DNA of 64,000 bases from an uncultured Gammaproteobacteria bacterium (GCA_964568885.1 CAZMSF010000002.1:4367-68366), one strand, 5' to 3'; shown: positions 28,995-49,784, counted from the first letter of the stretch. Notes: generated by a model from the sequence alone, not told the origin. Translations and numbers: made by a program.

Positions 28995-29125
28995 ATTTTC
29001 ATGCCATAGTTGTTTGTAGTAGCGACTATAAAGACATCTTAAGACCCAATTGATTTAACTTTCCTTCGGGTTTAGTCTAAATAAGACTATGTATTTGGCA
29101 GAAATTATAGTGTGATGTGTTTTAT

Positions 29126-29153
29126 AAAACCGGTCATTATGCCGGTTTTTTTT
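29126..29153 (+). terminator. putative intrinsic terminator (AAAACCGG-loop-CCGGTTTTTTTT)
   Basis: An 8-bp stem including CCGG/CCGG and an 8-nt T-run, between the ATPase and the 29184 gene. It is symmetric and so could act on either strand. Confidence 0.45.
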
Positions 29154-29183
29154 CTGTCAAAAAAGGGAGGAGGTGAAAAAAAT

Positions 29184-30806
29184 ATGAATAGTTCGACTTT
29201 CAATAGAAAGGTGAAAAAAATTTTAGTTTCAACTATTGCAACAGGTTTGGTTTTTGCTGCAACTGCGCTGCCTACATTTGCAGATACTGTTTCGCCCATA
29301 GATTTCGAGAGTCCTTATACAATTGGGAATATCAACGGACAGCAGGGGTGGATTAAAGCCGGAGCGTATGATGCGGCCGTAGCGGCAGTTTCTGGATTCT
29401 CAAATGCCTCAGGGTTTGGTTTTGGAACTCAGGCGTTAAGACTTTCAAACGCCGTTACTAGTGGCTCCTTCGGCGACCAGACGTTTTCCCCAGGACTATC
29501 AAGTCCTGCCGGTGAGGCGGTTTCGAATACTCATTTTGAGGCGAGTTTTGATATCGGATCCACACAATCTACTCAACAAGTAGGCCTATTTACATCGGTA
29601 AGCCCTGATGATGGCAATGGTGGTAGGATGAGTTACGTTGGATTTGAGGACCAAGCAGACGGAATTCATGTCATTTTTTATGATGTAACAGATCCGGGTC
29701 CGCTTCCTACAGTTGCAAGCTTTAATCCTTCTGACGTCGCGACTATAGATAGGACGAGTAAACATACAATAAAGTTTGCTATTGATTTTCTGTCGGGTCC
29801 TGCTAACGATATCGTCAAACTCTATGTTGATGGAGTTCTAAAGAAAACAGGAACGAGTTGGGAAGACTATTACCGATATGATCCCGAACAGAACGGAAAT
29901 GGACATGTAATTCCTACCACGAGTAAACTTTTGTTCCGTGAAGGAGGTACAGCTGCGCCTGGAAATAACGGCAATGGGTATTTAGTTGACAATGTTACTT
30001 TGTCCTCGACTGCACCTGTTCCGCCGTCGGTTCCGACTATTATTGTTCCTGCCGATGGAGCTCATGTTACATCGGCGGCTCTTGTAAAGGTTGATTGGAC
30101 GGATTCGACAGGTACAAATTCGCCATTTCAATACCAGTACGAAGCCTACTCAGATAGTGGGTATTCGAGTCTTATTTACTCTAGTGGATGGCTTAGTGCT
30201 TCCGAAATCCCAACACCGGGAACTCCGGTTGGAGATTACTGGGTAAGGGTCAGAGCAAAGGATGCAACCAGTACATTTAGTGGCTGGAGTAATGGAAGTG
30301 GTAGTCCATACCACTTTACCGTAGTCCCACTCGTCGGGCCGCCGACTTTGGTAAGCCAATGCAAAAATAATGGGTGGCAGACATTTAACAATCCATCATT
30401 TGCCAACCAAGGTGCATGCGTATCCTACGTGAGAGCACATTCCCACAGTGTTCTAGGCAACGTAAAGTATACGGCGTATGGCCTCTTGCGAAGTGCGCAA
30501 TTTGCGGCCGACACAGCCGATGGCGGAGGAGCCTTCCAATACTCCGATGCCAATCATGCTTGGTATAGGGTGCTTATCACCTCACTAAAGGTTGACGGGC
30601 ATAGCGCCTGGTTTGCCGGACGTGTCTGGCAAGCAAGCAATCCGTCTTGGGTTGGCAACTGGCTTTTTGCGAAGGTAAATGACAGTAGTCCTAAGCGTAT
30701 TTGGGGAAGTTTTACGACCCAATTAGCTGCTGAAAGTGGCGTATCCTCTATGGGAACGCCTGCTGATGGACCATTTAATACTATTGGTGCATTGGTTGTG
30801 CATTAG
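29184..30806 (+). CDS. hypothetical secreted protein
   Basis: An ATG at 29184 lies 8 nt after a strong AAGGGAGGAGGTG Shine-Dalgarno. The product starts MNSSTFNRKVKKILVSTIATGLVFAATALPTFA, a signal peptide. The ORF track starts earlier at 29112. Confidence 0.6.
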   Translation: MNSSTFNRKVKKILVSTIATGLVFAATALPTFADTVSPIDFESPYTIGNINGQQGWIKAGAYDAAVAAVSGFSNASGFGFGTQALRLSNAVTSGSFGDQTFSPGLSSPAGEAVSNTHFEASFDIGSTQSTQQVGLFTSVSPDDGNGGRMSYVGFEDQADGIHVIFYDVTDPGPLPTVASFNPSDVATIDRTSKHTIKFAIDFLSGPANDIVKLYVDGVLKKTGTSWEDYYRYDPEQNGNGHVIPTTSKLLFREGGTAAPGNNGNGYLVDNVTLSSTAPVPPSVPTIIVPADGAHVTSAALVKVDWTDSTGTNSPFQYQYEAYSDSGYSSLIYSSGWLSASEIPTPGTPVGDYWVRVRAKDATSTFSGWSNGSGSPYHFTVVPLVGPPTLVSQCKNNGWQTFNNPSFANQGACVSYVRAHSHSVLGNVKYTAYGLLRSAQFAADTADGGGAFQYSDANHAWYRVLITSLKVDGHSAWFAGRVWQASNPSWVGNWLFAKVNDSSPKRIWGSFTTQLAAESGVSSMGTPADGPFNTIGALVVH

Positions 30807-34882: not shown

Positions 34883-35044
34883 CTACTTCATCTTCACTTT
34901 GATTTGCTGAAAGGGAATTGTTATTTGCGGATTTTGGGGAATGTTATATCTGGCCGGTTTTGGGTGGTAGGTTATGAGTACCACATAAGAGATGAAAAGA
35001 ATAATCCCAATGCAAAAAATTAGCTGAATAAGCGAAAATTTCAT
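34883..35044 (-). CDS. putative small membrane protein (53 aa)
   Basis: The minus-strand ORF encodes MKFSLIQLIFCIGIILFISYVVLITYHPKPARYNIPQNPQITIPFQQIKVKMK. A -10-like TAAACT lies 6 nt upstream. The ORF is below the track cutoff. Confidence 0.25.
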   Translation of the reverse strand: MKFSLIQLIFCIGIILFISYVVLITYHPKPARYNIPQNPQITIPFQQIKVKMK

Positions 35045-35093
35045 ACAGATAGTTTATCATGTTCTTTTATTCCAAGCATGGTTTTGAGAGTAT

Positions 35094-35101
35094 TGTATAC
35101 T
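35094..35101 (+). promoter_or_regulatory. extended -10 TGTATACT; CDF gene ATG (35108) 7 nt downstream (leaderless)
   Basis: Read directly. Confidence 0.4.
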
Positions 35102-35107
35102 TAATAA

Positions 35108-36034
35108 ATGGAAGTGAAGGAGAAGAAAATATCGGCCAAAACGGTAATAGTCGCGTCATTTCTTGTGGACGTCCTTGACATCGTTCTCTCCGTTTTTGTA
35201 TCGGTTGTGACAGGGAGCGTTATCATGTTGACCGAAGCACTCGAAGGGGTATCCGACCTCACCTCTTCCGGGTTACTATTGATTGGACTTAAACGTTCTA
35301 CTCAAAAAGCTGACAGGTCACATCCATTTGGGTACGGAAGGGAAATTTATTTTTGGACTCTCTTGGCGGCGCTTGTAATGTTTGGGGTGACCTCAACGGT
35401 TTCAATTTATTTTGGCTGGCAGCGGATAGTGAATCCTCACCCCGTTGAAAACCTGTATCTTGCTCAAATAGTCCTTCTCATCGCGTTTTTTTCAAATGGG
35501 TACGCATTTTTCCTGAGTTACAAAAGGCTACTTAAGAAAAGGAGTTTTAATCAAATTGTAAAAATATTCTATAAGTCATCCCTTGTTGAGACAAAGACCA
35601 CCTTCATTCTGGATCTTATGGGAACGATAGCTTCATTTTTAGGTATGGTAGCTCTTGTGATTTACAGACTTACCGGGGATGTGCGCTTCGATGGAATAGG
35701 CGCTGTAGTTATTGGAGTTGCGCTTTCTTTTCTTGCGCTTCTATTGGTGATGGGAATTCGCGACCTGTTGGTTGGCAGAAGTGCTTCTCGAGAAACCGAG
35801 GAAAAAATAAAAAAGGCGGCACTTATGGTTGAGGAGGTAAATGATGTGCTCGATTTGAAAACGCTGCATGTCGGGTCCGAAAAATTGTTGGTCAATCTTG
35901 AGGTGCATATGAAAAACAATTTGGATACCGATGAAATAGAAAAATTGATGGATGAAATAAAGGAAAGAATACAACGCGAAGTACCCTCGGTAAAATATAT
36001 CCAGGTGGAGCTGGAAACCCCCGATAAGAAGTAG
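35108..36034 (+). CDS. cation diffusion facilitator (CDF) family metal efflux transporter
   Basis: Six TM helices plus a C-terminal cytoplasmic domain, with CDF-typical HD/D sites. Confidence 0.85.
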   Translation: MEVKEKKISAKTVIVASFLVDVLDIVLSVFVSVVTGSVIMLTEALEGVSDLTSSGLLLIGLKRSTQKADRSHPFGYGREIYFWTLLAALVMFGVTSTVSIYFGWQRIVNPHPVENLYLAQIVLLIAFFSNGYAFFLSYKRLLKKRSFNQIVKIFYKSSLVETKTTFILDLMGTIASFLGMVALVIYRLTGDVRFDGIGAVVIGVALSFLALLLVMGIRDLLVGRSASRETEEKIKKAALMVEEVNDVLDLKTLHVGSEKLLVNLEVHMKNNLDTDEIEKLMDEIKERIQREVPSVKYIQVELETPDKK

Positions 36035-36193
36035 CTCTTTGAGGCTAAATCCTGTATTTTTGTCAACGCTCCAACCCCTTCCAAAAGTTGCCTAGATGTG
36101 CTATACTACAAAGTTGTTTTTAAGCCCATAGTCTGAGCTTTTAAGTTCATACTGAATTTGTTTTGTTTGGCTTTTTGCCGAACATAATTTTGA

Positions 36194-36221
36194 AATACTC
36201 CCTCGCATGAGTATTTTTTTT
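36194..36221 (+). terminator. putative intrinsic terminator AATACTC-loop-GAGTATT followed by T8
   Basis: Hairpin at 36194-36215 and a T-run to 36221, in the 440-bp non-coding spacer downstream of the CDF gene. Confidence 0.4.
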
Positions 36222-36497
36222 GCGGCCAAAAAAACAGTTTTTGTGCTTTTTAAGCCTTGAAAAATTGCTATTCAAGTAGCTTTTGAAGCATGACGCACAT
36301 TGAAAATTGGTTTTCGTATAACATATTTTTTTCACCATTTGATTGTGGGATAATGGGAGGAAATTAAGTATAAAGGGATAAGTATAGAGTATAAAGAAAT
36401 TGCTTAATACTTCATTCATAATACTTTTTTCTTCCTGGTGTCCCACAATCAAGAGTAACTAAACTTTTGTCTTGATGTGGGAGAAAGGAGTCCGTCT

Positions 36498-36641
36498 ATG
36501 ACGGATAAAGACACGGGTCCTATCAGGCCCGCACACGGTGGCATCCCAAGGGAGGTCACAGTTGCTGATGTTGAGGCCGCGAAGGCTGCCCGCATGAAAA
36601 CGGCAACCGTCAAGGTTCAACCGCCCGTCAAGCCGGCGTAA
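36498..36641 (+). CDS. 47-aa ORF at the 5' edge of the high-GC segment (MTDKDTGPIRPAHGGIPREVTVADVEAAKAARMKTATVKVQPPVKPA)
   Basis: An ATG sits 7 nt after GAGAAAGGAG, which lies exactly at the AT-to-GC transition. In GC-rich DNA, where every frame is open, this could be a chance ORF. Confidence 0.25.
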   Translation: MTDKDTGPIRPAHGGIPREVTVADVEAAKAARMKTATVKVQPPVKPA

Positions 36642-36688
36642 GCCGTCGACAACCCAACCCCGCAAACAAGACACATGAGGTACAAGCA

Positions 36689-39223
36689 TTGACCGCTAAC
36701 CCCGAATCCACCACGAAGGTGGGTACAACTGAAGGAGAGGTTGACCTCGCCGAACGGAATGTCGTTTGGCTCCGCGAGATCGGAGTCGAGCACATCTCAA
36801 TCGCCGGCGGTAAAGGTGCCAACCTCGGCGAGATGATGCGCACCGGAGCACCCGTGCCGAACGCTTGGGTTGCAACGGCTCACGCACACGCAGCCTTCGT
36901 CAGGAGTCTGCCGCAGGCTGTCATCGACAAGATGGTGGCCCTCAACGACGCAGACCGCAAGAACGTCACCGCCTTCGCAGTCCTCGTAGAGGAGATCAAG
37001 ACCGGTATCGAAGAACACGAGCTTCCGCTCGAGCTTCGGACGCTCTTCCTCCGTTCCTACGAGATGATGAGGCGGGAGGACGGCAGCCCGGAAGTGGTTG
37101 CCGTTCGGAGTGCAGCCCGTCCTGAGGACGGTGCTGACGCATCCTTCGCGGGTCAGCAGGGAACCTTCACGGACATCCGTGGAGGCGAGAATGTCCTGCA
37201 CGCAATCGTTGCGTGCTGGGGCACATGCTACGAACTCCGCTCGGTAATCTACCGGGCAGAGCTTCGGGAGCAGACCCTCGAAAGCGCAGCCGCAGAACCC
37301 GATGAAGTCCGCAAGCGCGAGCTTCTCGAGTTCGCCGACTGCCTCCGCCACGAGAACTTCGCGATGGCAGTCGTCGTCCAGAAGATGGTCCAGTCCTACG
37401 TGTCTGGCGTCATGCTGATGGTCGACGCTGCGACAAGCGATCCCGCGTTCATCACCGTCCAGGCCGCGTTTGGCCTCGGGCAGGGTGTGGTCGACGGGAC
37501 GATGGAAGCGGAGACGTTCAAGTTCCGCAAGGACGACGAACTGACGCTCGTTGAGGGGCCCATCCGCGTCGCACAGCCTGAGATGTATGTCCGGAACCCG
37601 GACAGCACCGGTTCTATCGAGGACGCCACCATCAAGGTGGCGACACCTCCGTACCTCATCAACGCACCCAAGCTCACGAGGGGCCAAGCACGAGCCATTG
37701 CCCGGTACGGCATGGACATCGAACGGCATTACGGAGCCCCGCAGGATATCGAGTGGGCCGCGGTCCAGGAAAAGACCGACTGGCTCGACTTCTTCATCCT
37801 GCAGACCCGACCCATCACCGTGAAGCCCATCCTCCTCAGTGGAACCCCCGCTCCGACAGAGTCGACCCTCCTTGGGACCGGCGCTGCCGCGAGTCCGGGA
37901 GTCGGCGTGGGGCGGATCCGTATCGTGACCGGCGACCCCGGCAAGGACGCCTCTATCCTGGAGATGGTTCAGCCCGGCGACGTTCTCGTCACCGAGATGA
38001 CCACTCCGGACTGGGTTCCTGCCATGAAGCGGGCGGCAGCCATCATTACCCATCAGGGTAGTGTGACGTGCCACGCCGCTATCGTCAGCAGGGAGAAAGG
38101 GATCCCCTGCATCGTCGCGGTACACAACGCGCTCGAACTCCCCGATGGGGAACTCGTGACGGTCAACGCAGCGACCGGCCAGATCTGGCTCGGCGAATGC
38201 CAAGACACCATCGCATGGTGGGCGGCAGAAGTCGAGTACATGAAGAAGATGGCCCAGAACGTCGAAACCGTCACTCACGTCTGCATCAACGGCGCATCGC
38301 CGCTCGATGTGCAGAAGGCCCTTTCCGAGGGCAAGCGGCCGCGCGGCAACACGCTCGCGCGGGCGGAGTTCTTCTACCTTGACGTCTTCAACCAGCACCC
38401 ACGGGCGCTTCTTGACGACGGCAGGCGGGAGGAAGCCGTTCAGACCATGGTCGACGGCTTCAGCGAACACGCGAACCTTATGTGGCCCGAAACGGCCACA
38501 GTTCGCACCAACGACCTCAAGCCTCACGAGCTTGGCAAGCTCGGTAACGGGCGGGGTTGGGACTACGAGAAGCCCAACATGTCCGAGAACCCGCAAGACG
38601 GGTATCGCGGCGTGGCACGCTACCTCGACCCCAACAATCCCGGCGAGCAGGAAGCTTTCCGCATGGAGGTCGAGGCAATCGCCAAGACGTTCCTTGCTGG
38701 CTGGACCAACATCCAGCTGATGCTGCCGTACGTCCGGGCGGTCGAAGAGTTGACGGAGTGCCTTGCGCTCATCGACTCCATCCTCGAGCCTCTCGGCGTC
38801 AAGCGTGGCGGCGAGGACGGACTCCGGGTCATCATGATGGTTGAGCTGCCTGAAAACGCACTCAACCTCGATGCCTACATCGACGAGGGCATTGATGGCG
38901 TTTCCCTGGGCTCCAACGACATGGGGTCCAAGGTGCACGGCCTTGACCGCGACTGGAAGGGTCGCGCCAAGTACGCCGCCATCGAAGTCGGACCGTCGAT
39001 GCTCAAGCTCTACCAGATGGTAGGCGAGGTTGCCCATCGGCGCGGCCTCAAGTACATCGGGTTCTGTGGGCAGGGCGTTGCGCTCTTCCCCGAACTCGCC
39101 GGCAAGCTCGTCGGCTGGCACTACACGCACATCGGTTGCTCGCCCGACTCGTTCGAGGCGACACTGATCAATACGTACAACGCCGAGTTGCGGCTTGGCA
39201 TCAGGGCCCACAAGGCCGCTTAG
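36689..39223 (+). CDS. ppsA: phosphoenolpyruvate synthase-like enzyme (pyruvate, water dikinase family)
   Basis: N-terminal PPDK_N/ATP-grasp segment ISIAGGKGANLGEMM…VPNAWVATAHA. Central phosphohistidine swivel motif HQGSVTCHAAIVSREKGIPCIVAV (compare E. coli PpsA GGRTCHAAIIARELGIP). C-terminal PEP-utilising TIM barrel VIMMVELPENALNLDAYIDEGIDGVSLGSNDMGS…DRD. The start is TTG 36689 or GTG 36716. The 832-aa minus-strand ORF 36797..39295 is a GC artifact. Confidence 0.8.
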   Translation: MTANPESTTKVGTTEGEVDLAERNVVWLREIGVEHISIAGGKGANLGEMMRTGAPVPNAWVATAHAHAAFVRSLPQAVIDKMVALNDADRKNVTAFAVLVEEIKTGIEEHELPLELRTLFLRSYEMMRREDGSPEVVAVRSAARPEDGADASFAGQQGTFTDIRGGENVLHAIVACWGTCYELRSVIYRAELREQTLESAAAEPDEVRKRELLEFADCLRHENFAMAVVVQKMVQSYVSGVMLMVDAATSDPAFITVQAAFGLGQGVVDGTMEAETFKFRKDDELTLVEGPIRVAQPEMYVRNPDSTGSIEDATIKVATPPYLINAPKLTRGQARAIARYGMDIERHYGAPQDIEWAAVQEKTDWLDFFILQTRPITVKPILLSGTPAPTESTLLGTGAAASPGVGVGRIRIVTGDPGKDASILEMVQPGDVLVTEMTTPDWVPAMKRAAAIITHQGSVTCHAAIVSREKGIPCIVAVHNALELPDGELVTVNAATGQIWLGECQDTIAWWAAEVEYMKKMAQNVETVTHVCINGASPLDVQKALSEGKRPRGNTLARAEFFYLDVFNQHPRALLDDGRREEAVQTMVDGFSEHANLMWPETATVRTNDLKPHELGKLGNGRGWDYEKPNMSENPQDGYRGVARYLDPNNPGEQEAFRMEVEAIAKTFLAGWTNIQLMLPYVRAVEELTECLALIDSILEPLGVKRGGEDGLRVIMMVELPENALNLDAYIDEGIDGVSLGSNDMGSKVHGLDRDWKGRAKYAAIEVGPSMLKLYQMVGEVAHRRGLKYIGFCGQGVALFPELAGKLVGWHYTHIGCSPDSFEATLINTYNAELRLGIRAHKAA

Positions 39224-39524
39224 ACCGGAGCTCACCGTGAAGCGCGAGTTCCGGATCTTCCATACGAAAACCAGGCCGACCGCGAGGTCGGACACCGGGG
39301 ATGGTCCATACGGTCCATCCTCGCCCCTCCGCCGGTATGAGCGGGCAGACCCACAAGTGGTCTCCCTGCCATTCGGCGGGGGGACCTACATAAACAACTC
39401 AAAACCCCTAACTTAAAACTCAAATCTTATTTTCCAATATCCTCAAGTTTTTCTTACCCTTCTTTGTTTCAATACCAAGACTACCAATATATGATGTATC
39501 AACCTTTGGTGAAAGGAGGTATAA

Positions 39525-39713
39525 ATGGCAAAATACGGAAAAAAAGCACAGGAAAAAATATCCGATGTCATGCATGAATATGGGAAAGGAAAATTGAAAT
39601 CCGGCAGAAGCGGAAAGAAGGTGACGAGTCAAAAGCAAGCGGTAGCGATAGGAATTTCTGAAGCCAGAAAAGAGGGAGATAAAGTGCCAACGCCGAAAAA
39701 GCATTACGCTTAG
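39525..39713 (+). CDS. small basic conserved protein (DUF6496-like, ~62 aa)
   Basis: A strong AAAGGAGGT Shine-Dalgarno lies 7 nt before the ATG. The product is MAKYGKKAQEKISDVMHEYGKGKLKSGRSGKKVTSQKQAVAIGISEARKEG. Confidence 0.55.
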   Translation: MAKYGKKAQEKISDVMHEYGKGKLKSGRSGKKVTSQKQAVAIGISEARKEGDKVPTPKKHYA

Positions 39714-39902
39714 ATGTATGAGGGGTCCTGTCTGCGCTCTTCCCCCGTCCGACAATCCTCATCGCTCACTTCGCTCGGATTGCGGGTGCTCGACGGGGGT
39801 CCCCCTTCGCTTGCCACCCCAGATGAAATTAGTTTAGTCTTTTTGAAACAGAAAAGAAAGAGGAAAGGAGAGGAAAATTAACCTCTAAAGGATAAAGGAT
39901 TT

Positions 39903-40184
39903 ATGAGAAAGGTTAATACTGAGAAAATTGAACCGAATTTAGCGCTTTGGGAGCTTGAGATAGAGCAGTTGGAAGGTCGCTCGCTTGAGAAAAAAGGAAG
40001 AGAAGAGATAAACGAAATGTTATCTGAGGGATGGCTTTTATTGTCTGTCTATACTTTGCGTTTTAAAGACGGGGAAGATACTTGGCTTGAGCGACCGATG
40101 GCGATTTTGGGACTTCCAAAACATCCTGTAAAAATAAAGAGAAAGAAAGAGAAAAAGGCATATCCCGAGTCGGTAGTTTTGTAA
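39903..40184 (+). CDS. hypothetical protein
   Basis: 93-aa ORF with an AAAGGATAAAGGA Shine-Dalgarno. Confidence 0.4.
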   Translation: MRKVNTEKIEPNLALWELEIEQLEGRSLEKKGREEINEMLSEGWLLLSVYTLRFKDGEDTWLERPMAILGLPKHPVKIKRKKEKKAYPESVVL

Positions 40185-40201
40185 AAACTTAAAGCCCCGG
40201 T

Positions 40202-40840
40202 TTATTTAGTTGTAAGAATAGTCGTTGAAAGTAGTGTTGCGTGCATGTATGCATCGTGCATTGAGGAGTACATCTTCTGATAATTCTTGTCGGCATAAGA
40301 GTCCAAAATCGCTTTTTCGTCTAATACGTGGCGGGCAAAATAATTTTGCGCATTCATGTACGAATCAACGTTTTTTCCTTGAGCAAGAAGCGATGAAAAA
40401 TCATCGGTGAATTTTTGGAGACTTTGAAGGGCAATTGTTTCTCTTGCATTGTCTTTTAGCTTTTTTGCATCTGCGTAATCAAGGAAAGCGTTAATGTGGT
40501 TTGTCCAAATAGTCAAAAATTTATTTTTTACGTCTACCCCATACAAACTTTCCATCTGCGAGGCAAGTTGTTGGGTGTTATCATCAACCGCCTGCTTTGA
40601 TGCTTGAAAGTCTGCCCTCCGTTCGTAGCGCGATATTAACATCTGCCCGCCGACAAGTGCATGCTCTCCCATAAGAGTATCCAGAGTTTGCTGTTTTTGT
40701 TCGGTAGAAAGTGGGGGTGTTGTTGGGGTGGTTTTTGGTTGTTGAGCAAAAACGTTTTGAAGAGCCGGTACTTGGAGGATAACAGGGGCAGCCAGCATAA
40801 CAAAAAGAAGTGAAAGTATAAAGAAAAGATTTTTTGACAT
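40202..40840 (-). CDS. hypothetical secreted protein
   Basis: Signal peptide MSKNLFFILSLLFVMLAAPVILQVPA. Confidence 0.5.
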   Translation of the reverse strand: MSKNLFFILSLLFVMLAAPVILQVPALQNVFAQQPKTTPTTPPLSTEQKQQTLDTLMGEHALVGGQMLISRYERRADFQASKQAVDDNTQQLASQMESLYGVDVKNKFLTIWTNHINAFLDYADAKKLKDNARETIALQSLQKFTDDFSSLLAQGKNVDSYMNAQNYFARHVLDEKAILDSYADKNYQKMYSSMHDAYMHATLLSTTILTTK

Positions 40841-40902
40841 ATGGCAAGTGTAAACGGTAGGAGCAAAAGGTGAGTTAATGAACGGTATGAATTTTACAAG
40901 AA

Positions 40903-42015
40903 CTATTCGAATTTGAAGAGGAAGAATTCGCAGGATTGCTGAGTGATTTGAGCGGGCCCGACAGTCGGTGTCGGGGTGGGGGTGTCTGTTGGGGTCGGAG
41001 GGACAAAGGTTTTCAGGTTAAGCTGAGGATTTCTTACCGGCTTGGGAGTCGCCGTAGGAGTCGAGTTTTGTTGTTCGGTGTCATTTCCCCCACCAAAAAG
41101 ATTTGCAAAGAAGGAGGCTACATTATCAAAAAATGATTTGTTGCTTGTTGATGCTCCGAGGATTACAGTGTTGCCGACGACCGGAACAAATGCGGTTTTT
41201 TTATCGCATGTCGGTACCGCCTGGACACGATAAACCTGTCCCTTTTCCATTGAGGAGGGAACATCAAGGTCCCACGTTGCTTTATACCGGGTTTTTTGGG
41301 CGGTAGTTTCGGCAACAATTGCAGCTATATTTTCTTTTTTGTCGATTGTCACAATTTTATCAGCTTCTTTGTAGAGAGTGAATGTGAAGGCGGAGATTTT
41401 GGCGTATTTCCCGTCATCACCTTCAACTTTACCAAAGGCAGTAATTGCAGTTTTTCCTCCGCGGATAATTGCACCTGCCTCAAGTCCATCGCATTTACAC
41501 ATATTTTGTGCAAAAGGTGTCGAGCATTTATTGTTGGTGCAGGCCGTGCACCCCGCGTCTTTTGCAGCACCCGTGCAGTCACCATCTTTTGTGCACGCTA
41601 CCCCACACGCAGGGGGAGTTTTGCAAACGCCACTAATACAAGCTGTACAGGAATCTTTTGCGCCAGTGCAGTCACCATCTTTTGTGCACGCTACCCCACA
41701 CGCAGGGGGAGTTTTGCATGCGCCGCTTATGCATGCGGTGCAGCCGTCTTTTGCTCCCTCGCAGTCTCCGTCTCTAGTGCATGCGACATTGCATGCAGGA
41801 GCCTTCTTGCACGTATATCCGTTGGTGCCTGAAACGCAGTCAGAGCAATCTTGTGGGCACGCGACTCCACCGGGGGTACATGTCTGGCCGCAGGCAGGAG
41901 GGGGTTGGGTCGGAAGACAGACATTATCAACTGCCCGTGCTTTTTGAGTAGTCAAGAATATAAATATTAGTGCAAAAAATCCTACCAATAATGTTTTAAA
42001 AGCTACAATTTTCAT
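40903..42015 (-). CDS. secreted protein with three 31-aa Cys-rich repeats (PACGVACTKDGDCTGAKDSCTACISGVCKTP)
   Basis: An N-terminal signal, with the repeats encoded at about 41521-41802. Its start overlaps the stop of the 42012..44249 gene (ATGA). Confidence 0.6.
   Translation of the reverse strand: MKIVAFKTLLVGFFALIFIFLTTQKARAVDNVCLPTQPPPACGQTCTPGGVACPQDCSDCVSGTNGYTCKKAPACNVACTRDGDCEGAKDGCTACISGACKTPPACGVACTKDGDCTGAKDSCTACISGVCKTPPACGVACTKDGDCTGAAKDAGCTACTNNKCSTPFAQNMCKCDGLEAGAIIRGGKTAITAFGKVEGDDGKYAKISAFTFTLYKEADKIVTIDKKENIAAIVAETTAQKTRYKATWDLDVPSSMEKGQVYRVQAVPTCDKKTAFVPVVGNTVILGASTSNKSFFDNVASFFANLFGGGNDTEQQNSTPTATPKPVRNPQLNLKTFVPPTPTDTPTPTPTVGPAQITQQSCEFFLFKFE
41521..41802 (-). repeat. three tandem ~93-bp coding repeats (Cys-rich 31-aa units)
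   Basis: Protein residues 72-165 of the 370-aa product. Confidence 0.6.
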
Positions 42016-44249
42016 AGTAATTCAAATGCTCCTAATTCTACTACGGTAAAACCATTTCTTTGAAGAGGGAGAATTTCAGGTCGAGAAACTGAATAGGGAG
42101 AATCAACTCGATGAATAACCAGGTGCACTCTATGCATCGTATCCGGTTTTGGTACAAGAGAGAGTGGGAGATTTCTCTCAACTTCTGCCTGATTTGCGAT
42201 TCCGATGAAATAATAACGGGCTTTAGTCTTTATGGTATTGACGACATCTTGAGAAAGTCGGTTTGTCTCATTCTCATTTAAGCCAAGTTCCGACGCGATT
42301 TTATTTACTTGGGTCGGGATTTCACTTCTCCCTACGATAAATCCTTTCGAGGGTAGCGAAAATTGAACCGTCCGTGGGTCATACTCATAATAAAGGTACT
42401 GTCTTTCCGTACCGTTTGCCCGGATTGTTCCATCATGAAGTACTAGAGTCCGGATAGTGTTGTTTTTGATTTCCGGGTCCGAGTAGGTCAGCTTTGCGCC
42501 GGTTGAGACAATTATTGACTCTGTTTGAATTGGATAGAGAAAGATTGCAGGAGAAAGACCAGTAATATAACAATGTGGGTCTCCCGATTGATATCCGGGT
42601 TGAACTCCATTCGTGTTCTGAAATACTTTTGGAAAGCGGGTTTTACACACTTGCATTTCTGCCGGTATGTTAAGGTCAGGGCAAAGACCTTTGGCTATGG
42701 CGTTTATCATGTCAGTCTTATTTGTCGAGCCTGTTGTGCTTATGAGGTAATAAGTATTTGGTGCTGTTGATACTTGTCCAAGCACAATTTTTCCGTATCC
42801 TGGAATGTCAAAAGTAACGACCTTTGCATAATCTGATTCTTTCGAGCACTCAGTCGGCGTAGGCGTAGGAGTACAGGCTCCGCCACTAGGAGATGGGTTT
42901 GGGGAAGTCGAGGGAGAAGGGGATGTTGTGGTGGAGGGTGACGGACTCGGTGAAGATGTTGTTCCTGGAACGTTGTTGCCGTGGTCCTGCGCATAGGCCT
43001 TTTTTACGAATGGATTTGTGAGAAACCCAATTTGTGGCTTTGAGGCCTTAACAGCTTGGATGAATTTAACGGTATATCCTGAATTGAGTGATGCAACACC
43101 TTTAATTATGTAATACGGTTCGTATGAATCCTGCGTGTCTTCAAGCGGTTTTTCAATGTAGCCCATTACCATATCGGTAATGGTAGCATCAGTACTTTCT
43201 GCTAAATTGTTAGGATACACTTTCTTTAGGTCAACCGTTCCGGTGCCTGCGGGCATCATAATGGTAAAGTCGGCTTGATTATTTCTCACTTTAGAAAGCG
43301 CTTCTTGGGGTCCGATTATTTTTTCAGTTGTAATTTTTTTATCTCTATCGAGCTGCCGCATTGTTGAGCTGATAGTGACAATGCTTCCGTCTTTTTGAAC
43401 TCCAATAACGACGCTATTGAAATCAACCGGTCGGGAAAGTCCGTCTTGGTTGTTGTTGGTGTTGATGACACTTTCATCCCGTGGTCCGTTGGGGTCTGCA
43501 TATCCCGGGCTTAAAGTCGACATGAATTTTGTTTCGGGAAGGTTAAGAATGCCGGGAGGGTTAAGAAGCGGTGCGCCTAAGAGATTCCAATTTCTATGAC
43601 ACTCAACATACGTGACGTCTTTGGCATCCGACTTTTGGAAAGTTACCGGACACGTCACCGTTGCATCAAGCATCCCCAAAGTTCTGAGTATTGTTTCGGC
43701 AACGGATTGAGGATTTTGTGAGCCGGCGATTTTTAATCCGGTGGCATTATAGAAATCGAAAGTTCCCACTTTAGGGTTTACCAAAAGAAAAGAACTTTTT
43801 TCACCACCGTCTAATGTATATAAGTCATAATCATCCGAGCTTTTTTTAAGTTTTGCATTCGCAAGATTGAGTTTTTCCTTTAAGCTTCGTACCTCTTCGG
43901 AAGATACATTATTTTTTAAAGGGTATACTTTGACCGCAGAATTGGTAAGCGGTGAATTTTTTACTTTGCCAAGTGCGCTTCTGTCCTCGTATTTTGTTGA
44001 AGTAAATTTTGGAATTTGAGTGGAAGGAATTGTCTCTTGGGATGTTCTTGAGTTTGGCGATGTGTTTGGCTGTTTTGAAAATATAAGTATTAAAACCAAA
44101 ATTAAACCGACCGCTGCAATAAGTCCCACCAAAAGAAGTGTTTTCACAGGAAGCATTCGTGGTCCCTTTTTAAGGGATTCTTGGGTATCCGGCAAAGAGG
44201 GGGAGGCGGGCTGTTCCATAACATTTACTTCGGAATTTTTATTTTCCAT
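42012..44249 (-). CDS. large signal-anchored surface protein (745 aa) carrying the same C-terminal domain as the 768-5039 paralogs
   Basis: An N-terminal TM (LLLVGLIAAVGLILVLILIF), a Ser/Pro/Thr linker (SPSPSPSTTTSPSPSTSPNPSPSG), and the C-terminal PAIFLYP…YLYYEY…LGLNENE…PKPDTM…NGFTVVELG, which matches the family domain. Confidence 0.7.
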   Translation of the reverse strand: MENKNSEVNVMEQPASPSLPDTQESLKKGPRMLPVKTLLLVGLIAAVGLILVLILIFSKQPNTSPNSRTSQETIPSTQIPKFTSTKYEDRSALGKVKNSPLTNSAVKVYPLKNNVSSEEVRSLKEKLNLANAKLKKSSDDYDLYTLDGGEKSSFLLVNPKVGTFDFYNATGLKIAGSQNPQSVAETILRTLGMLDATVTCPVTFQKSDAKDVTYVECHRNWNLLGAPLLNPPGILNLPETKFMSTLSPGYADPNGPRDESVINTNNNQDGLSRPVDFNSVVIGVQKDGSIVTISSTMRQLDRDKKITTEKIIGPQEALSKVRNNQADFTIMMPAGTGTVDLKKVYPNNLAESTDATITDMVMGYIEKPLEDTQDSYEPYYIIKGVASLNSGYTVKFIQAVKASKPQIGFLTNPFVKKAYAQDHGNNVPGTTSSPSPSPSTTTSPSPSTSPNPSPSGGACTPTPTPTECSKESDYAKVVTFDIPGYGKIVLGQVSTAPNTYYLISTTGSTNKTDMINAIAKGLCPDLNIPAEMQVCKTRFPKVFQNTNGVQPGYQSGDPHCYITGLSPAIFLYPIQTESIIVSTGAKLTYSDPEIKNNTIRTLVLHDGTIRANGTERQYLYYEYDPRTVQFSLPSKGFIVGRSEIPTQVNKIASELGLNENETNRLSQDVVNTIKTKARYYFIGIANQAEVERNLPLSLVPKPDTMHRVHLVIHRVDSPYSVSRPEILPLQRNGFTVVELGAFELL

Positions 44250-44341
44250 ACCTATTTTATATTAGGAATAAATGTTTAAAAGTTCAAGCAACAAAAAATC
44301 CTACTTTTCAAATTGATGTTCACCGTTTAATATATTTCAAA

Positions 44342-44758
44342 ATGCCAAGAAGAGAACACGAGGGAAGAGCAATCAGAGGGTCTGAGGATCTGGCGCTTAT
44401 TAAAAGCAGTGACGACGTGCCGAAAATAGATAATCCTGCGGAGCGGGAGTTTGCCCGGCTGCTCCTTGATAAGACCTCCCTTGAAATTACACACGAGCCA
44501 ACGTTGTTTTATTATCACGACGACGAAGGGATATTGAGGGGAACACTCCCCGATTTTAGAGTGGTCAATCCCGATACCGGAGCTGCGACCTATATTGAAA
44601 TTACGACTTCAAGTAATGGAAAAGGCAGACAGCAGTCAATTATGCAGCGATTAGCACCCGATGTGCACTATGTCGTTTTCAAAAGAGAAAAATTGGAAGC
44701 AATTCAGAATAAATTCCCCGAATATCATTTTTTTAACGGAAACGGTCCGGCAAAATGA
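44342..44758 (+). CDS. hypothetical protein, possibly restriction-endonuclease-like (PD-(D/E)xK) fold
   Basis: LPDFRVV…YIEITTSSNGK is loosely PD…E.K-like. A TAATAT -10 box lies about 7 nt before the ATG. The call is very tentative. Confidence 0.4.
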   Translation: MPRREHEGRAIRGSEDLALIKSSDDVPKIDNPAEREFARLLLDKTSLEITHEPTLFYYHDDEGILRGTLPDFRVVNPDTGAATYIEITTSSNGKGRQQSIMQRLAPDVHYVVFKREKLEAIQNKFPEYHFFNGNGPAK

Positions 44759-45549
44759 TATTGCAATTTGAAAAGCGTTTGTTAACATGTACTATTCCTT
44801 GCCCGATAGAAATGCTGAATATTGAGCGAAACGCTTTTTTGGTATCCGGCGGTGGTTCTACCATGCTCGAGATGGTAAAAGCCTCAATGGGGGGAGAAAC
44901 TCCCGGATTTCAACCTGCAGTAGTCATAGCAAGCAATCCATATGCCGGTGCCATAGAGAAAGCCCAGTCAGTGGGTTTGTCTGTTGAAATAGTAGATCCT
45001 AATACTTTCCGCGGAGATGATGGAAAGGTTGACCAGTACAGTTATTACCAGGGTCTTCGGAAAGCAACAGATAAATATGGTGCAACAGTTTTTACTCAAA
45101 ACGGACATTTGCCTCTTACTCCCGTAGACTACATTCTCTATATGTCAAGATTTGGGCAGGGAGGTTTTAATCAGCATCCCGGAAGAGTTCCTGATTTTGG
45201 GGGAAAGGGAATGTTTGGACGACGGGTTCATGCTGCAACATTGATATTCAAAAGAGATGTGAGGAGTGACAAAATGATGACGACTCCAATCGTTCAGAGA
45301 GTTCATCTAGAATTTGATAAAGGAGCAGTAGTTGGATTTAGGGATGTTCTAATAGCGCCAAACGATACAGTGGATGAATTACAGCAAAGAGTGTTGCCTG
45401 TTGAGCATGAAATAAACGTCCAGTTGGCCAAAGATATAGGCTCTGGAAGAATACAAGAATATGAATTTGTATCAGAGATAAAACCTGGCGAAGAGATAAA
45501 TCTCAGAAATGCGAAACGGATTGCACGATTACTATATCCCAACGGTTAA
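44755..45549 (+). CDS. purN: formyltransferase-family protein, PurN-like phosphoribosylglycinamide formyltransferase (divergent)
   Basis: The formyl_trans_N motifs FNQHPGRVPDFGGKG and VHLEFDKGAVV, and the position directly upstream of purD. Confidence 0.55.
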   Translation: MILQFEKRLLTCTIPCPIEMLNIERNAFLVSGGGSTMLEMVKASMGGETPGFQPAVVIASNPYAGAIEKAQSVGLSVEIVDPNTFRGDDGKVDQYSYYQGLRKATDKYGATVFTQNGHLPLTPVDYILYMSRFGQGGFNQHPGRVPDFGGKGMFGRRVHAATLIFKRDVRSDKMMTTPIVQRVHLEFDKGAVVGFRDVLIAPNDTVDELQQRVLPVEHEINVQLAKDIGSGRIQEYEFVSEIKPGEEINLRNAKRIARLLYPNG

Positions 45550-45552
45550 TAT

Positions 45553-46893
45553 ATGTCTGTAATTGCGGAAAGAAACATAGTCGGAATTGTTGACAGCGGT
45601 GGACGTGGGGCCGCTTTGGCTCGCGCGTATGAGAGAAGTCCGCATGTTGATGGAATAGTTGTTATTCCCGGAAATGACCTTACTGCAGAAATGGCAACCA
45701 AGCCAACTTTCGTTTTTCCAAATATCAGCAATTCAAGTGCCGATGCGATTGCAGACAAATTTTCAGAATTGGGGGTAACACTTGCCGATGTTGCTCAAGA
45801 TAATGCCATTGAGGCGGGAGTTACAGATAGGCTTAGGGAACAGGGAATTGCAACTATAGGACCTTCGAGAGATGCCGGACAAATCGAATGGAGCAAAGCA
45901 TACGCGCGGGGGCTTGGGAAAAACGCAGGCTTGCAACAACCGCGTTTTGAAACATTTACCAGAATTGAGCCTGCAGATTGGTACATAGACCATAGCGGAG
46001 AGGAAAACTTTGTCGTAAAAGCCAACGGGCTTGCCGAAGGGAAAGGTGTGAAGCTTGCGCACAGCTCGGAGGAGGCAAAAAGAATGGTTCGACTGCTTCA
46101 TGAGCAGCATGCAAAAGCATCGGAAATTTTTCTCATTGAGGAAATGGTTGCGGGTGAAGAATTCTCGACTTTTTTTGCCTCAGACGGTGAGCACATAAAA
46201 CTACTCGGACATGCTCAAGACCACAAGAGAGAGGGAAATTACGACACGGGGGAAAATACAGGAGGAATGGGCGCAAGTACACCCCCAAGACTCATGACAC
46301 GCACTGTCGAGCTTGTGGTTGAGCAAGAAGTGAAGAAAATGATGACAGCGCTTTCTGAGGAAGGCAGACCATATGAGGGAATTGGATATTATGGAGGGAT
46401 GCTTAATGAGGTTTTGAAACGGGTAAACAACATTGAGTGGAATGCAAGATGGGGGGACCCGGAGGTTGAGATAGTTGCTCCCGGAATAACGTCGGATATC
46501 TTCGAACTTGCCGTTGCTATCGTTAAAAAAAGTTTGGATAAGTACACTTTAACAACAGACAACCTCGCGCGGGTGGTTGTTGCAGGGGCATCGAGAGGTT
46601 ATCCAAGAGACTATAGTATGGTCAAGGGTAAAGAAGTTTTTGGCCTTGACTATGTCATGCATATGGAAGGTGTCGAGTTATATGGCGCAGGAGTAAAAGT
46701 GGATGAGGATGGGCGGCATTGGGCGAATGGAGGGAGACTCTTTTATATTGTAGGACAAGGAGAAAATGTAATTGAAGCACGGGAGAAGGCGTACGGAGCA
46801 ATGGCACGGGTGCATGTGGACGGAAATAACCTAATGTACCGGAACGACATCGGATGGAAAGACGTTCAAAGGCTGAGGGATGAGGGATATTAA
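45553..46893 (+). CDS. purD: phosphoribosylamine--glycine ligase
   Basis: The N-terminus IVGIVDSGGRGAALARAY…IVVIPGND and the ATP-grasp core. Confidence 0.9.
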   Translation: MSVIAERNIVGIVDSGGRGAALARAYERSPHVDGIVVIPGNDLTAEMATKPTFVFPNISNSSADAIADKFSELGVTLADVAQDNAIEAGVTDRLREQGIATIGPSRDAGQIEWSKAYARGLGKNAGLQQPRFETFTRIEPADWYIDHSGEENFVVKANGLAEGKGVKLAHSSEEAKRMVRLLHEQHAKASEIFLIEEMVAGEEFSTFFASDGEHIKLLGHAQDHKREGNYDTGENTGGMGASTPPRLMTRTVELVVEQEVKKMMTALSEEGRPYEGIGYYGGMLNEVLKRVNNIEWNARWGDPEVEIVAPGITSDIFELAVAIVKKSLDKYTLTTDNLARVVVAGASRGYPRDYSMVKGKEVFGLDYVMHMEGVELYGAGVKVDEDGRHWANGGRLFYIVGQGENVIEAREKAYGAMARVHVDGNNLMYRNDIGWKDVQRLRDEGY

Positions 46894-46895
46894 CT

Positions 46896-49781: not shown

Positions 49782-49784
49782 ATT

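Follow-up and report, generated by a model that had tools for sequence, protein, structure and literature searches.

A GC-rich PEP-synthase-like operon of low-GC CPR bacteria is an old island that appears to encode a highly structured mRNA

A GC-rich block in the 64,000-nucleotide stretch of DNA analysed here (the window) carries a lineage-specific PEP-synthase-like operon of a Microgenomates-like CPR group, which is inherited together with an AT-rich leader and a GC-rich 3′ element. The island is old and common to related low-GC CPR bacteria, and is not freshly imported DNA. Its high GC content accompanies selection for a sense transcript with exceptionally dense base pairing, and this selection is probably what sustains it. 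A structured-mRNA operon whose GC is maintained by selection on folding is the best explanation that we can offer, and we give it an even chance of being correct. The initial annotation of the sequence had already suspected a CPR-like host, and the best named relatives of PurB, from Shapirobacteria and Curtissbacteria (about 50% identity), agree with this.

The segment 36485–39395 of the window is about 62% GC, in a genome of 43% GC. The GC fraction is 0.32 at 36300–36499, 0.58–0.68 over 36500–39399, and 0.33 at 39400–39599, so the sharp step originally described at both ends is evident in the profile. The left edge lies, as had been noticed, at the ribosome-binding site of a 47-aa ORF (Shine-Dalgarno GGAGAAAGGAG, 36480–36490; ATG at 36498), and the right edge is near 39395, at ...GGCGGGGGGACCT / ACATAAAC. 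The 844-aa PpsA-like ORF (GC 0.625, compared with 0.43 for the genome) is the sole GC3 outlier among 54 ORFs in the window, at 0.79, with the other 53 at 0.33–0.51; the GC3 of the 47-aa ORF is 0.62. Other GC-rich stretches of the window, such as 15058–16788, owe their richness to codon positions 1 and 2 alone (GC3 0.37). The reported high-GC codon usage is seen in CTC for 59% of Leu, CGC + CGG for 74% of Arg, AAG for 94% of Lys, and ATC for 93% of Ile, compared with 13%, 27%, 28%, and 26%, respectively, in 19 other genes. The protein composition is also shifted to GC-rich codons (GC1 0.66; Ala 11% vs 7%). As in a genomic island, then, composition and codon usage deviate from those of the host. 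There are no tRNA genes in the window, no integrase or recombinase among the island neighbours there, and no flanking direct repeats or target-site duplications were found at the island. The idea that the contig is a chimera of high-GC and low-GC pieces has the abrupt change of composition in its favor and nothing more. It was rejected, and its probability is negligible: 35000–41000 is colinear and 99.98–100% identical in four other independent assemblies (four samples, two assemblers) that span both junctions, and the orthologous junctions are present in related loci L001–L007.

The features of the operon, in order along the window, are as follows.

36088–36097, + strand: promoter-like extended -10 element (TGcTATACT), read from the sequence by consensus resemblance only
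36100–36228, + strand: short structured leader with conserved motif GCCCAUAGU (fold z = -3.2; 0/200 shuffles as stable)
36298–36319, + strand: box CATTGAAAATTGGTTTTCGTAT, which holds the palindrome GAAAA-N4-TTTTC and the 5′ arm (36308–36319) of a long-range inverted repeat
36339–36452, + strand: long leader hairpin, with conserved base TTGATTGTGGG / CCCACAATCAA and an interior that varies in sequence and length
36470–36481, + strand: TCTTGATGTGGG, alternative partner of the 3′ half of the leader hairpin (36441–36453), abutting the Shine-Dalgarno
36498–36641, + strand: 47-aa upstream ORF, where the GC-rich block starts
36689–39223, + strand: PpsA-like pyruvate,water dikinase gene, 844 aa (Pfam domains, PDB matches)
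39225–39255, + strand: small hairpin CCGG..CCGG straight after the stop (RNAalifold consensus, one compensatory pair)
39262–39273, + strand: 3′ arm ATACGAAAACCA of the inverted repeat, perfect complement of 36308–36319
39273–39395, + strand: three GC-rich hairpins ending in GGCGGGGGGACCU, no U-tract, at the right end of the GC-rich block

Judged from its sequence, the encoded protein is a PpsA-like member of the PEP synthase family and belongs to a divergent subfamily. The gene starts with TTG, 9 nt past GAGG at 36677–36680. The PEP-synthase domain order of the initial annotation was confirmed with Pfam: PPDK_N (ATP-grasp; PF01326, residues 38–379, E = 1e-65), PEP-utilizers with TCHAAI (phosphohistidine swivel; PF00391, 428–497, E = 2e-25), and PEP-utilizers_C (TIM barrel for PEP/pyruvate; PF02896, 518–824, E = 2e-31), all far above the gathering scores. 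As a PEP synthase, the enzyme would turn pyruvate, ATP, and H2O into PEP, AMP, and Pi. The top PDB matches are PEP synthases (E = 1e-100), in accord with the earlier assignment to the PpsA type. The three domains occur in the same order in the PpsA structures 8a8e, 9dae, and 2ols, which also have the phosphohistidine motif and the GSND and CGQ C-terminal motifs; all six proteins of the clade carry TCHAAIVSRE, GSNDM, and FCGQG without variation, aligned to the equivalent motifs of 8a8e. Ahead of the phosphohistidine motif TCHAAIVSRE is the Thr at which PpsA undergoes regulatory phosphorylation. However, identity to PpsA outside its own six-cluster clade is only 31–39%, and the protein is about 80 residues longer than known PpsA, with clade-specific insertions such as YEKPNMSENPQDG. 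Its NCBIfam scores are below the equivalog cut-offs (NF005057, 528.9 vs 598 bits; TIGR01418, 500.6 vs 739.75 bits), and it was therefore filed as PpsA-like. The dN/dS ratio of the gene relative to L001 is about 0.09.

The initial annotation proposed a recent acquisition, with a high-GC partner (an actinobacterium, for example) as the donor, from the sharp compositional borders and the high-GC codon usage, and had named in advance what would speak against it: close homologues in low-GC relatives with similarly GC-rich genes. This is what was found. The only close homologues, P0002–P0006 (58–91% aa identity), are all in related Patescibacteria of low GC (39–41%). Instead of the patchy presence expected of a recent island, the gene is in every relative sampled, and it lies between HxlR (or CDF) and DUF6496 or a 212-aa gene in L001, L002/3, L004–7, and the P0003 contig; the HxlR / PpsA / DUF6496 neighbourhood is shared by four of the five homologues (P0002, P0003, P0004, and P0006), and P0005 (locus L008) has a different genomic context. 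The three syntenic copies with DNA (L001, L002, and L004) are 57–60.5% GC, with GC3 0.66–0.75, between flanks of 39–41% GC. Flank genes of relatives sharing the slot are only 70–93% identical, and among the window, L002, and L004 the flank proteins are 70–86% identical with saturated dS. Since the gene is still GC-rich after saturated synonymous divergence of the flanks, its composition is not a passive signature of recent import. With signatures of mobility also absent in the window, a recent acquisition is barely credible.

In a neighbor-joining tree, the clade is monophyletic in 100/100 bootstraps, on a long branch. The best match outside the clade is 39% identical, and the named neighbours are Chloroflexota (38% identity to the Chloroflexota-like PpsA group). 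The expected nesting within Actinobacteria failed, as actinobacterial ppsA genes branch elsewhere and there is no high-identity donor clade; on this tree, Actinobacteria are not the source of the gene. The sister group (80/100 bootstraps) includes P0029, from a 3.46-Mb genome of 70% GC, with a gene GC3 of 0.91. Because the genome of this nearest outgroup tested is 70% GC, it is plausible that the gene arose long ago in high-GC surroundings, near the Chloroflexota-like PpsA group as far as the sequences indicate. Of the high-GC donor first proposed, a deep origin is tenable and a recent import is not; the gene may go back to an ancient transfer out of a Chloroflexota-like lineage of high GC.

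In the model of Lawrence and Ochman, an atypical island arises by horizontal transfer and then ameliorates. The present island resembles this model in its sharp discontinuity, its atypical codons, its high-GC outgroup, and the decay of GC in three lineages. One ancient high-GC transfer into the common ancestor, followed by slow and incomplete neutral amelioration, would account for these features and for the GC-shifted amino acid composition: in L001, L002, and L008, GC3 decays at the neutral ratio of S>W to W>S changes, where S stands for G or C and W for A or T. However, mobility genes and att-like repeats are lacking, the gene is in all sampled relatives, and GC is kept or rising in two lineages despite saturated synonymous divergence. 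On the window branch the polarised four-fold changes S>W vs W>S are 6 vs 17 (p = 2e-9), and on the L004 branch 11 vs 14 (p = 2.5e-4), compared with a neutral expectation of about 5:1, in a parsimony polarisation that is biased if the outgroup itself decayed. Furthermore, the flank synonymous sites are saturated between lineages that both keep a GC3 of at least 0.75 in the gene, types A and B differ by 0.59 at the four-fold sites of PpsA, near saturation for such composition, and there are already indications that the divergence since acquisition is much greater than the amelioration half-time. High-GC ppsA genes elsewhere are also without the folding excess described below. Transfer and amelioration alone is a distinctly unlikely explanation.

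Folding calculations suggest that selection has favored an uncommonly dense folding of the transcript, on a par with structured RNA viruses. The MFED expresses as a percentage how much more stable the fold of a native sequence is than the folds of its shuffled versions, which here were synonymous-codon shuffles in 150-nt windows. The module is represented by five distinct DNA sequences (the window, L001, L002, L004, and L008), and in all five orthologues the coding sequence has an MFED of 10.5–17%, with z = -5 to -16: 12.5–13.4% for the window (z = -8 to -11), 16.5% for L004, 13.7% for L001, 13% for L002, and 10.5% for L008. Ten other genes of the window have MFED values of -5 to +4%, about 1%, with one exception, an unrelated ORF at 29112–30806 with 11.6%. 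Six canonical ppsA genes, including a GC3-matched Pseudomonas gene and the 70% GC outgroup, show 1–4.5% (z = -0.8 to -2.9). With an independent dinucleotide-shuffle null, the mean z is -1.83 in the coding sequence, whereas the flanks score 0.07 and -0.01 (p = 2e-4), and the structured zone coincides with 36050–39400. When the observed synonymous differences separating orthologues were relocated among equivalent codons, the folding excess was lost (z = -4.1 to -7.3; control gene, +0.9). The substitutions between the window and L001 fit the partner's predicted structure better than relocated ones (z = -3.3 and -3.1; 0/200), and controls were not significant. Long-range positional conservation of structure was no better than in control genes (SCI 0.40–0.47 vs 0.31–0.50). 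Because GC3 decays neutrally in L001, L002, and L008 with MFED still at least 10%, folding, not GC itself, may be the selected trait, and this possibility makes structure less secure as the cause of the high GC.

A circulating GC-rich cassette that repeatedly overwrites the resident copy by homologous recombination, from an unsampled high-GC reservoir or from other CPR lineages, so that each copy is young and partly ameliorated, is another way to read these patterns. PpsA is 60% identical between the window and L004, compared with 70–86% for the flank genes, and this greater divergence hints at a replacement event and some horizontal traffic; for L002, PpsA is 79% identical and the flanks are 70–79%. 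The graded GC3 among copies (0.79, 0.75, 0.69, 0.66, and 0.47) and the neutral-rate decay in three loci fit the same reading. In L008 the entire module, including the AT-rich leader, is in its other genomic context and adjoins a serine recombinase, and a Y1-transposase-like gene follows closely downstream in L004 and L007. However, no clade member was in a high-GC context among the matches obtained when 5.8 billion protein clusters were searched, and a high-GC donor would not supply the AT-rich leader that belongs to the conserved module. The four-fold divergence of PpsA between the window and L001 is 0.38, near the 0.42–0.62 of the flank genes, which fits co-divergence. After an import, one would not expect the window branch to show more W>S than S>W changes, and the folding excess and its maintenance are left unexplained. 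Recurrent replacement is unlikely.

Selection on a structured transcript, the reading that we prefer, draws further on the elements outside the coding sequence, as well as on the occurrence of the complete module, AT-rich leader included, in the differing surroundings of L008 and on the lack of clade members in high-GC contexts among the database matches. The extended -10-like element lies within a 25-nt block conserved in the window, L001, and L004. The short leader ends in a terminator-like hairpin, ATACTC..GAGTAT, then T8 (36203–36228). The stem co-varies (ATACTC/GAGTAT in the window, GACTC/GAGTC in L004, and TACGC/GCGTA in L002), its loop ..GCAU is conserved, and it may be a transcription attenuator, as predicted from these sequences. 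In L004 only about 20 nt lie between this hairpin and the 5′ arm, so the arm would have to be reached by read-through. The box CATTGAAAATTGGTTTTCGTAT has no second copy in the window at up to 3 mismatches and is found in all five distinct loci. The region 36335–36484 folds at -51.4 kcal/mol (z = -6.1), and the long leader hairpin has compensatory changes at two base pairs, TTGATCGTGG/CCACGATCAA in L004 and TTGACTGTGG/CACAGTCAA in L008, as well as G-U pairs on the sense strand. The equivalent of TCTTGATGTGGG also co-varies (CTTGACGT in L004, TCTTGACGAG in L008), and this element may act as a switch. The 47-aa ORF, first called from the window sequence, is supported by in-frame conservation in the window, L001, and L004 (42–51% identity, 14 invariant residues), and was also called independently in L090–L093; it has no Pfam match. 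Because L002 has it fused or deleted and L008 lacks it, the ORF is dispensable.

The GC-rich hairpins past the stop were correctly recognized at the outset: 39255–39400 folds at -74 kcal/mol (z = -6.3; 0/200 shuffles match), and the hairpin cluster is kept in all five loci, with double-sided changes at six pairs. The 12-mer arm has just two copies in the 64 kb. Perfect arms are present in every locus, of 12 nt in the window and 13, 14, 14, and 16 nt in L001, L002, L004, and L008, respectively, and they carry coordinated substitutions and changes in T/A-run length between genomes. In each of the four loci tested, the global MFE fold predicted for the 2.8–3.1 kb transcript has the two arms paired with each other. 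Inverted repeats that bracket a gene could also point to a cause at the DNA level. This might be GC-biased gene conversion at a local recombination hotspot, or selection could act on hairpins or inverted repeats in the DNA, as in a segment that inverts or transposes and has the 12–16 bp repeats as its ends. The antisense MFED is also 7–11%, and mobile-element genes are nearby in L004 and L008. However, the sense MFED exceeds the antisense MFED in all five orthologues, and the co-varying helices contain G-U pairs. The orientation is the same in all nine assemblies, the window has neither the duplications nor the recombinase that a mobile segment might leave near the island, and gene conversion would not end exactly at the Shine-Dalgarno. 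Conserved module sequence extends past both arms, so these are not the termini of an element. A DNA-level cause is very unlikely.

The RNA structure proposed here has parallels in known systems. GORS-like structure requires an excess of about 7% or more over sequence-order-randomised controls, along the whole sequence. The excess here is of the same size as in GORS-like RNA viruses and is spread along the coding sequence, and, as in those viruses, foldedness is kept as individual pairings, poorly conserved between relatives, turn over (SCI about 0.4), although our null differs from the published protocol and the sequence here encodes a metabolic enzyme on a bacterial chromosome, in place of a viral genome. 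The viral rationale, evasion of innate immunity, is not transferable to a bacterial gene. Complementary sequences that flank rRNA form processing stalks, which are RNase III substrates. The operon has similar complementary ends, kilobases apart, bracketing a structured, GC-enriched transcript in an AT-rich genome, but the enclosed RNA is protein-coding and the stem is just 12–16 bp. Pairing of the 5′ UTR and 3′ UTR within one mRNA is found in Staphylococcus aureus icaR (PMC3868564) and Bacillus subtilis hbs (PMC5737220). In icaR the 3′ UTR has the Shine-Dalgarno region as its pairing partner, and it recruits RNase III (PMC3868564). The predicted transcript of the operon likewise would have a conserved 3′ UTR segment complementary to its own 5′ UTR, with co-variation of the two segments. 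However, its 5′ arm is about 170 nt upstream of the Shine-Dalgarno and does not overlap it, the arms span about 2.9 kb, and the coding sequence is hyper-structured.

We suggest that the 5′ arm in the leader and the 3′ arm, located some 40 nt beyond the stop codon, would pair to close the mRNA of about 3 kb as a panhandle, capped on the 5′ side by the long leader hairpin and on the 3′ side by the hairpin cluster. Translation would be gated by the attenuator-like leader and the hairpin beside the Shine-Dalgarno. The most likely consequence would be an RNase-resistant, long-lived or stored mRNA, although RNase resistance is only a guess. We infer from the models that the structure may form in vivo, for which the higher MFED of the sense strand in five of five orthologues is indirect support, may cause the high GC, and may serve to stabilise the mRNA. 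The stronger proposal, that this is a cellular bacterial mRNA with virus-like, genome-scale ordered structure and a co-varying 5′–3′ panhandle, in which selection on folding both creates and keeps the GC island, falls a little short of an even chance. If it is true, some of the compositional islands flagged by detectors of horizontal gene transfer would be RNA-structure islands, and the PpsA-like mRNA would be a specially protected message, long-lived or stored.

The GC profile of the window, in 200-nt sliding steps, is 0.32 at 36300–36499, rises to 0.58–0.68 over 36500–39399, and returns to 0.33 at 39400–39599. The left edge of this island is the Shine–Dalgarno sequence GGAGAAAGGAG (36480–36490) of a 47-codon ORF with its ATG at 36498, and the right edge lies directly after GGCGGGGGGACCT, near 39395. 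The profile and the sequence thus confirm what the initial annotation had described, a GC jump at both ends with the left boundary at the ribosome-binding site of the 47-aa ORF. The high-GC codon usage claimed there is also seen in the 844-codon ORF at 36689–39223, the only GC3 outlier among the 54 ORFs of the window (0.79 vs. 0.33–0.51 elsewhere). The encoded protein has the domains PPDK_N, PEP-utilizers, and PEP-utilizers_C, in that order, aligns with PEP synthases of known structure at E = 1e-100, and keeps the catalytic motifs, in agreement with its earlier assignment as a three-domain PpsA-type enzyme; its score is under both NCBIfam PpsA equivalog cut-offs. An 832-aa ORF on the minus strand (36797–39295) was rejected as a gene, as it has 5–13 stops in the orthologous loci L001, L002, and L008. 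It occupies the codon-aligned shadow frame, in which a stop requires TTA, CTA, or TCA in the sense frame.

Other GC-rich segments are present in the window. A 576-aa ORF at 15058–16788 on the minus strand is 57% GC, owing wholly to the first two codon positions (GC1 0.66, GC2 0.67, GC3 0.37), and has no Pfam match; this peak is of a different kind from the island and is driven by amino-acid content. A small patch at 39714–39820 (about 55–60% GC), directly 3′ of the DUF6496 gene, has no significant structure (folding z = 0.13) and is missing 3′ of the DUF6496 gene of the orthologous locus L004. The exact 13-mer TGCGCTCTTCCCC is common to this patch (39733–39745) and the PpsA-like coding sequence (39079–39091).

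The PpsA-like protein is encoded without change, and beside the same genes, in four further assemblies made with SPAdes and MEGAHIT from four samples; positions 35000–41000 align with these assemblies without gaps at 99.98–100% identity. Both junctions therefore recur, and a chimeric contig is excluded. Among 5.8 billion protein clusters, the only close relatives are five clusters, at 91, 86, 78, 59, and 58% identity, and the next match, outside the clade, is at 39%. All five are in a low-GC context, and four of the five share the neighbourhood GH63-like/Zn-ribbon/LUD/HxlR/(CDF)/PpsA-like/DUF6496 … MgtE-like/Nramp. The syntenic copies with DNA (L001, L002, and L004; the P0003 contig is left out of these figures) are 57–60.5% GC, with GC3 of 0.66–0.75, in flanks of 39–41% GC, and the L008 copy, in a different context, has a GC3 of 0.47. 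The flanking genes of the window, L002, and L004 are 70–86% identical, with saturated synonymous sites. For PurB, the best named relatives (about 50% identity) are from Shapirobacteria and Curtissbacteria; these bear out the earlier guess of a CPR-like host, which is a member of the Patescibacteria.

Was the gene recently acquired from a high-GC partner such as an actinobacterium, as first suggested? Its nearest homologues come from low-GC relatives, in which the gene is similarly GC-rich, so this proposal is unsupported. In the NJ tree, the PpsA-like clade is monophyletic (100/100 bootstraps) on a long branch, next to a group in which the named members are Chloroflexota, and the actinobacterial sequences, within which it had been expected to nest, branch elsewhere. 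In 80/100 bootstraps its sister is a set of three proteins, one of them encoded in a 3.46-Mb genome of 70% GC, and an old origin of the gene from a high-GC lineage is plausible. A search of the window, the island neighbours, and the island borders for tRNA genes, recombinases, and flanking direct repeats found none. A profile scan of genome contigs with the clade alignment, keyed on the universal motif DASFAGQQ, gave, among the matches listed, only canonical PpsA at ≤35% identity, and these canonical loci then served as controls. A clade-specific DNA pattern back-translated from YEKPNMSENPQDG, which matches 8/8 clade loci and 0/80 canonical loci, had no match in viral and metagenome contigs, and a literature search on transfer of GC-rich genes or of PEP synthase in CPR found nothing relevant.

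If the island were ameliorating passively, its four-fold sites should show S>W and W>S changes (S, G or C; W, A or T) in the ratio of about 5 : 1 expected under neutrality from the flank equilibrium. The changes were polarised with outgroups by parsimony.

Changes at four-fold sites of the PpsA-like gene, by branch
Window: S>W 6, W>S 17
L004: S>W 11, W>S 14
L001: S>W 31, W>S 4
L002: S>W 26, W>S 9
L008: S>W 43, W>S 7

This ratio does not hold on the branches of the window and L004 (p = 2e-9 and 2.5e-4, respectively), whereas the pattern for L001, L002, and L008 is that of neutral decay. Of the 17 changes from W to S on the window branch, perhaps about 4 could be due to parsimony bias, but the contrast stays. 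Passive amelioration does not fit the island.

The island is part of a larger RNA-like module. Its leader box, long-range inverted repeat, long leader hairpin, second hairpin partner, and 3′ hairpin cluster are shared by all five distinct loci, including the window; the first elements listed below are not common to all five, since they are missing in L008.

Features of the module in the window
36088–36228: promoter-like element and short terminator-ended leader; hairpin stem co-varies; missing in L008
Leader box, CATTGAAAATTGGTTTTCGTAT: in the AT-rich leader; present in 5/5 distinct loci
36308–36319 and 39262–39273: inverted-repeat arms, the 3′ part of the leader box and a segment about 40 nt past the stop; perfect complement
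36339–36452: long leader hairpin; variable interior, co-varying base; folding z −6.1
Abutting the Shine–Dalgarno sequence: alternative partner for the 3′ half of the leader hairpin
39273–39395: GC-rich 3′ hairpin cluster; −74 kcal/mol, z = −6.3; compensatory pairs

The last of these bears out the GC-rich hairpins first noticed at the right end of the island. The arms are 12 nt long in the window, 13 in L001, 14 in L002 and L004, and 16 in L008, and they change in step, both in bases (GTAT/ATAC vs. GTAA/TTAC) and in the lengths of T/A runs; this comparison is taken from the repeat search, as the MAFFT alignment misplaced the run-length indels. The 12-mer has no other copy within the 64 kb. In all four loci tested, global minimum free energy folds of the putative 2.8–3.1 kb transcripts join one arm to the other. 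The base of the leader hairpin is TTGATTGTGGG/CCCACAATCAA in the window, TTGATCGTGG/CCACGATCAA in L004, and TTGACTGTGG/CACAGTCAA in L008. L008 has the entire module, together with its AT-rich leader, at a site of unrelated genomic context, showing that the leader belongs to the unit, and an AT-rich leader is hard to reconcile with delivery by a uniformly high-GC donor.

The leader at 36100–36228 contains a conserved GCCCAUAGU, one to three hairpins, and a terminator hairpin in which the ..GCAU loop is conserved, and it resembles a transcription attenuator or a small RNA. In L002 it is about 45 nt, too small for a typical riboswitch aptamer. An Rfam search gave no gathering-threshold matches, and its E-value mode returned only hairpin-like miRNA or leader noise. 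Readings of the hairpin and arms as an integron attC site, a MITE, or a TIR transposon were rejected, as there are no core sites or target duplications; furthermore, the hairpin interior is unrelated across genomes, and sequence conservation continues past both arms.

The coding sequence itself is unusually folded. Against shuffles that keep the protein and codon usage, folded in 150-nt windows, its native mean is −59.2 kcal/mol vs. −52.6 (z = −10.9), an MFED (the gain in folding stability of the native sequence over its shuffles, in percent) of 12.5%. The orthologues give 16.5% (L004), 13.7% (L001), 13% (L002), and 10.5% (L008), while six canonical ppsA genes, among them one from Pseudomonas with equal GC3 and that of the 70% GC outgroup, give 1–4.5%, and a further ten genes in the window lie between −5 and +4%, bar one at 11.6%. 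That exception, a 564-aa ORF at 29112–30806 on the plus strand (z = −3.7 vs. synonymous shuffles; GC2 0.50; no Pfam match), could owe its excess to internal repeats of a low-complexity protein. With dinucleotide shuffles in non-overlapping windows, the mean z is −1.83 for the PpsA-like coding sequence vs. 0.07 and −0.01 for the flanks (Mann–Whitney p = 2e-4), and the structured zone spans about 36050–39400. In 5/5 orthologues, MFED is higher for the sense than for the antisense strand.

Conservation of long-range pairing, measured by SCI, is about 0.4 and does not separate the PpsA-like gene from control genes. When the real synonymous differences between two orthologues were relocated among equivalent codons, folding dropped nearly to the shuffle level (z = −4.1 to −7.3; +0.9 for a control gene). 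The substitutions between the window and L001 agree better with the structure predicted for the partner than relocated substitutions do (z = −3.3 and −3.1; 0/200), and the controls are not significant. From these folding predictions, based on five DNA sequences, foldedness appears to be actively kept despite turnover of the pairings. Since GC decays neutrally in L001, L002, and L008 while MFED persists, folding, rather than GC, may be the selected trait. The same trio, a high MFED, pairings with poor conservation, and a foldedness that is maintained, defines GORS, the genome-scale ordered RNA structure of RNA viruses, for which published MFED values are 7–9% (HCV) and about 15% (SARS-CoV-2) (PMC7642675). 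Pairing of 5′ and 3′ UTRs has bacterial precedents in icaR (PMC3868564) and hbs (PMC5737220), although the position and scale of the pairing differ from those of the PpsA-like module.

The window and L004 PpsA-like proteins are 60% identical, a greater divergence than in the flanks, which points to one or more replacements or to a change of rate. This leaves room for a model in which the gene circulates as a cassette. In L008 (4462–9509), the module adjoins genes for SpoVG, HTH_17, an N6/N4 methyltransferase, and a 493-aa large serine recombinase, with Sigma-70 and DnaG on its other side, a context unlike all other copies that may be an integrative element. In L004 (about 12723–13505; also L007, 5452–6117), a gene for a 221-aa Y1-transposase-like protein (weak PF01797 match; RAYT or IS200-like) is inserted directly 3′ of the hairpin cluster, between two direct 49-nt copies (TTCCTTCGGATCAGCCCCAAACAACACCGGGGGTTGAATGGGCGTGAAC); it is missing from the window, as is a bAvd/23S_rRNA_IVP four-helix-bundle gene found between Zn-ribbon and LUD in L004 (7535–7885) and L005.

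De novo purine genes are unusual in CPR. The window encodes PurB (17654–19096) and, at 40903–51241, two large proteins of no assigned family (370 and 745 aa) along with Formyl_trans_N/PurN-like, PurD, PurL, and PurQ-like proteins. The corresponding place in L004 (14477–15372) is occupied only by a 144-aa ORF and a 67-aa AIRC (PurE) fragment, and the purine-biosynthesis genes appear to have been lost in the lineage of L004.

The evidence best supports a reading of the island as a lineage-specific PpsA-like operon with a sense transcript that would be selected for dense pairing and a closed 5′–3′ architecture; selection on transcript folding, rather than recent import, would maintain its GC-rich state. 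The module features would remove single-stranded, AU-rich, and free-end targets of RNases, and the result would be an mRNA that is long-lived or stored, with the leader as its gate. We infer such an mRNA as the most economical proposal, since the features converge on the removal of RNase targets.

The locus looks like a textbook island of horizontal transfer, yet it passes only the composition test and no other test of recent transfer, and compositional callers would mislabel it. Its anomaly appears to be a phenomenon of RNA structure and more interesting than a routine transferred island. If this is correct, mRNA-folding selection keeps the GC content of a 3-kb gene 20 points higher than that of its genome even where synonymous divergence is saturated, and local bacterial base composition would gain a previously undescribed determinant, a cellular counterpart to viral GORS. 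The module, with its attenuator, panhandle, and hairpins, is compact and fit for testing in a heterologous host. The one gene so treated encodes a predicted enzyme of PEP/pyruvate interconversion, amid genes for lactate utilisation and glycosidases, which suggests that the PEP/pyruvate step may be under post-transcriptional control in CPR with minimal regulatory repertoires.
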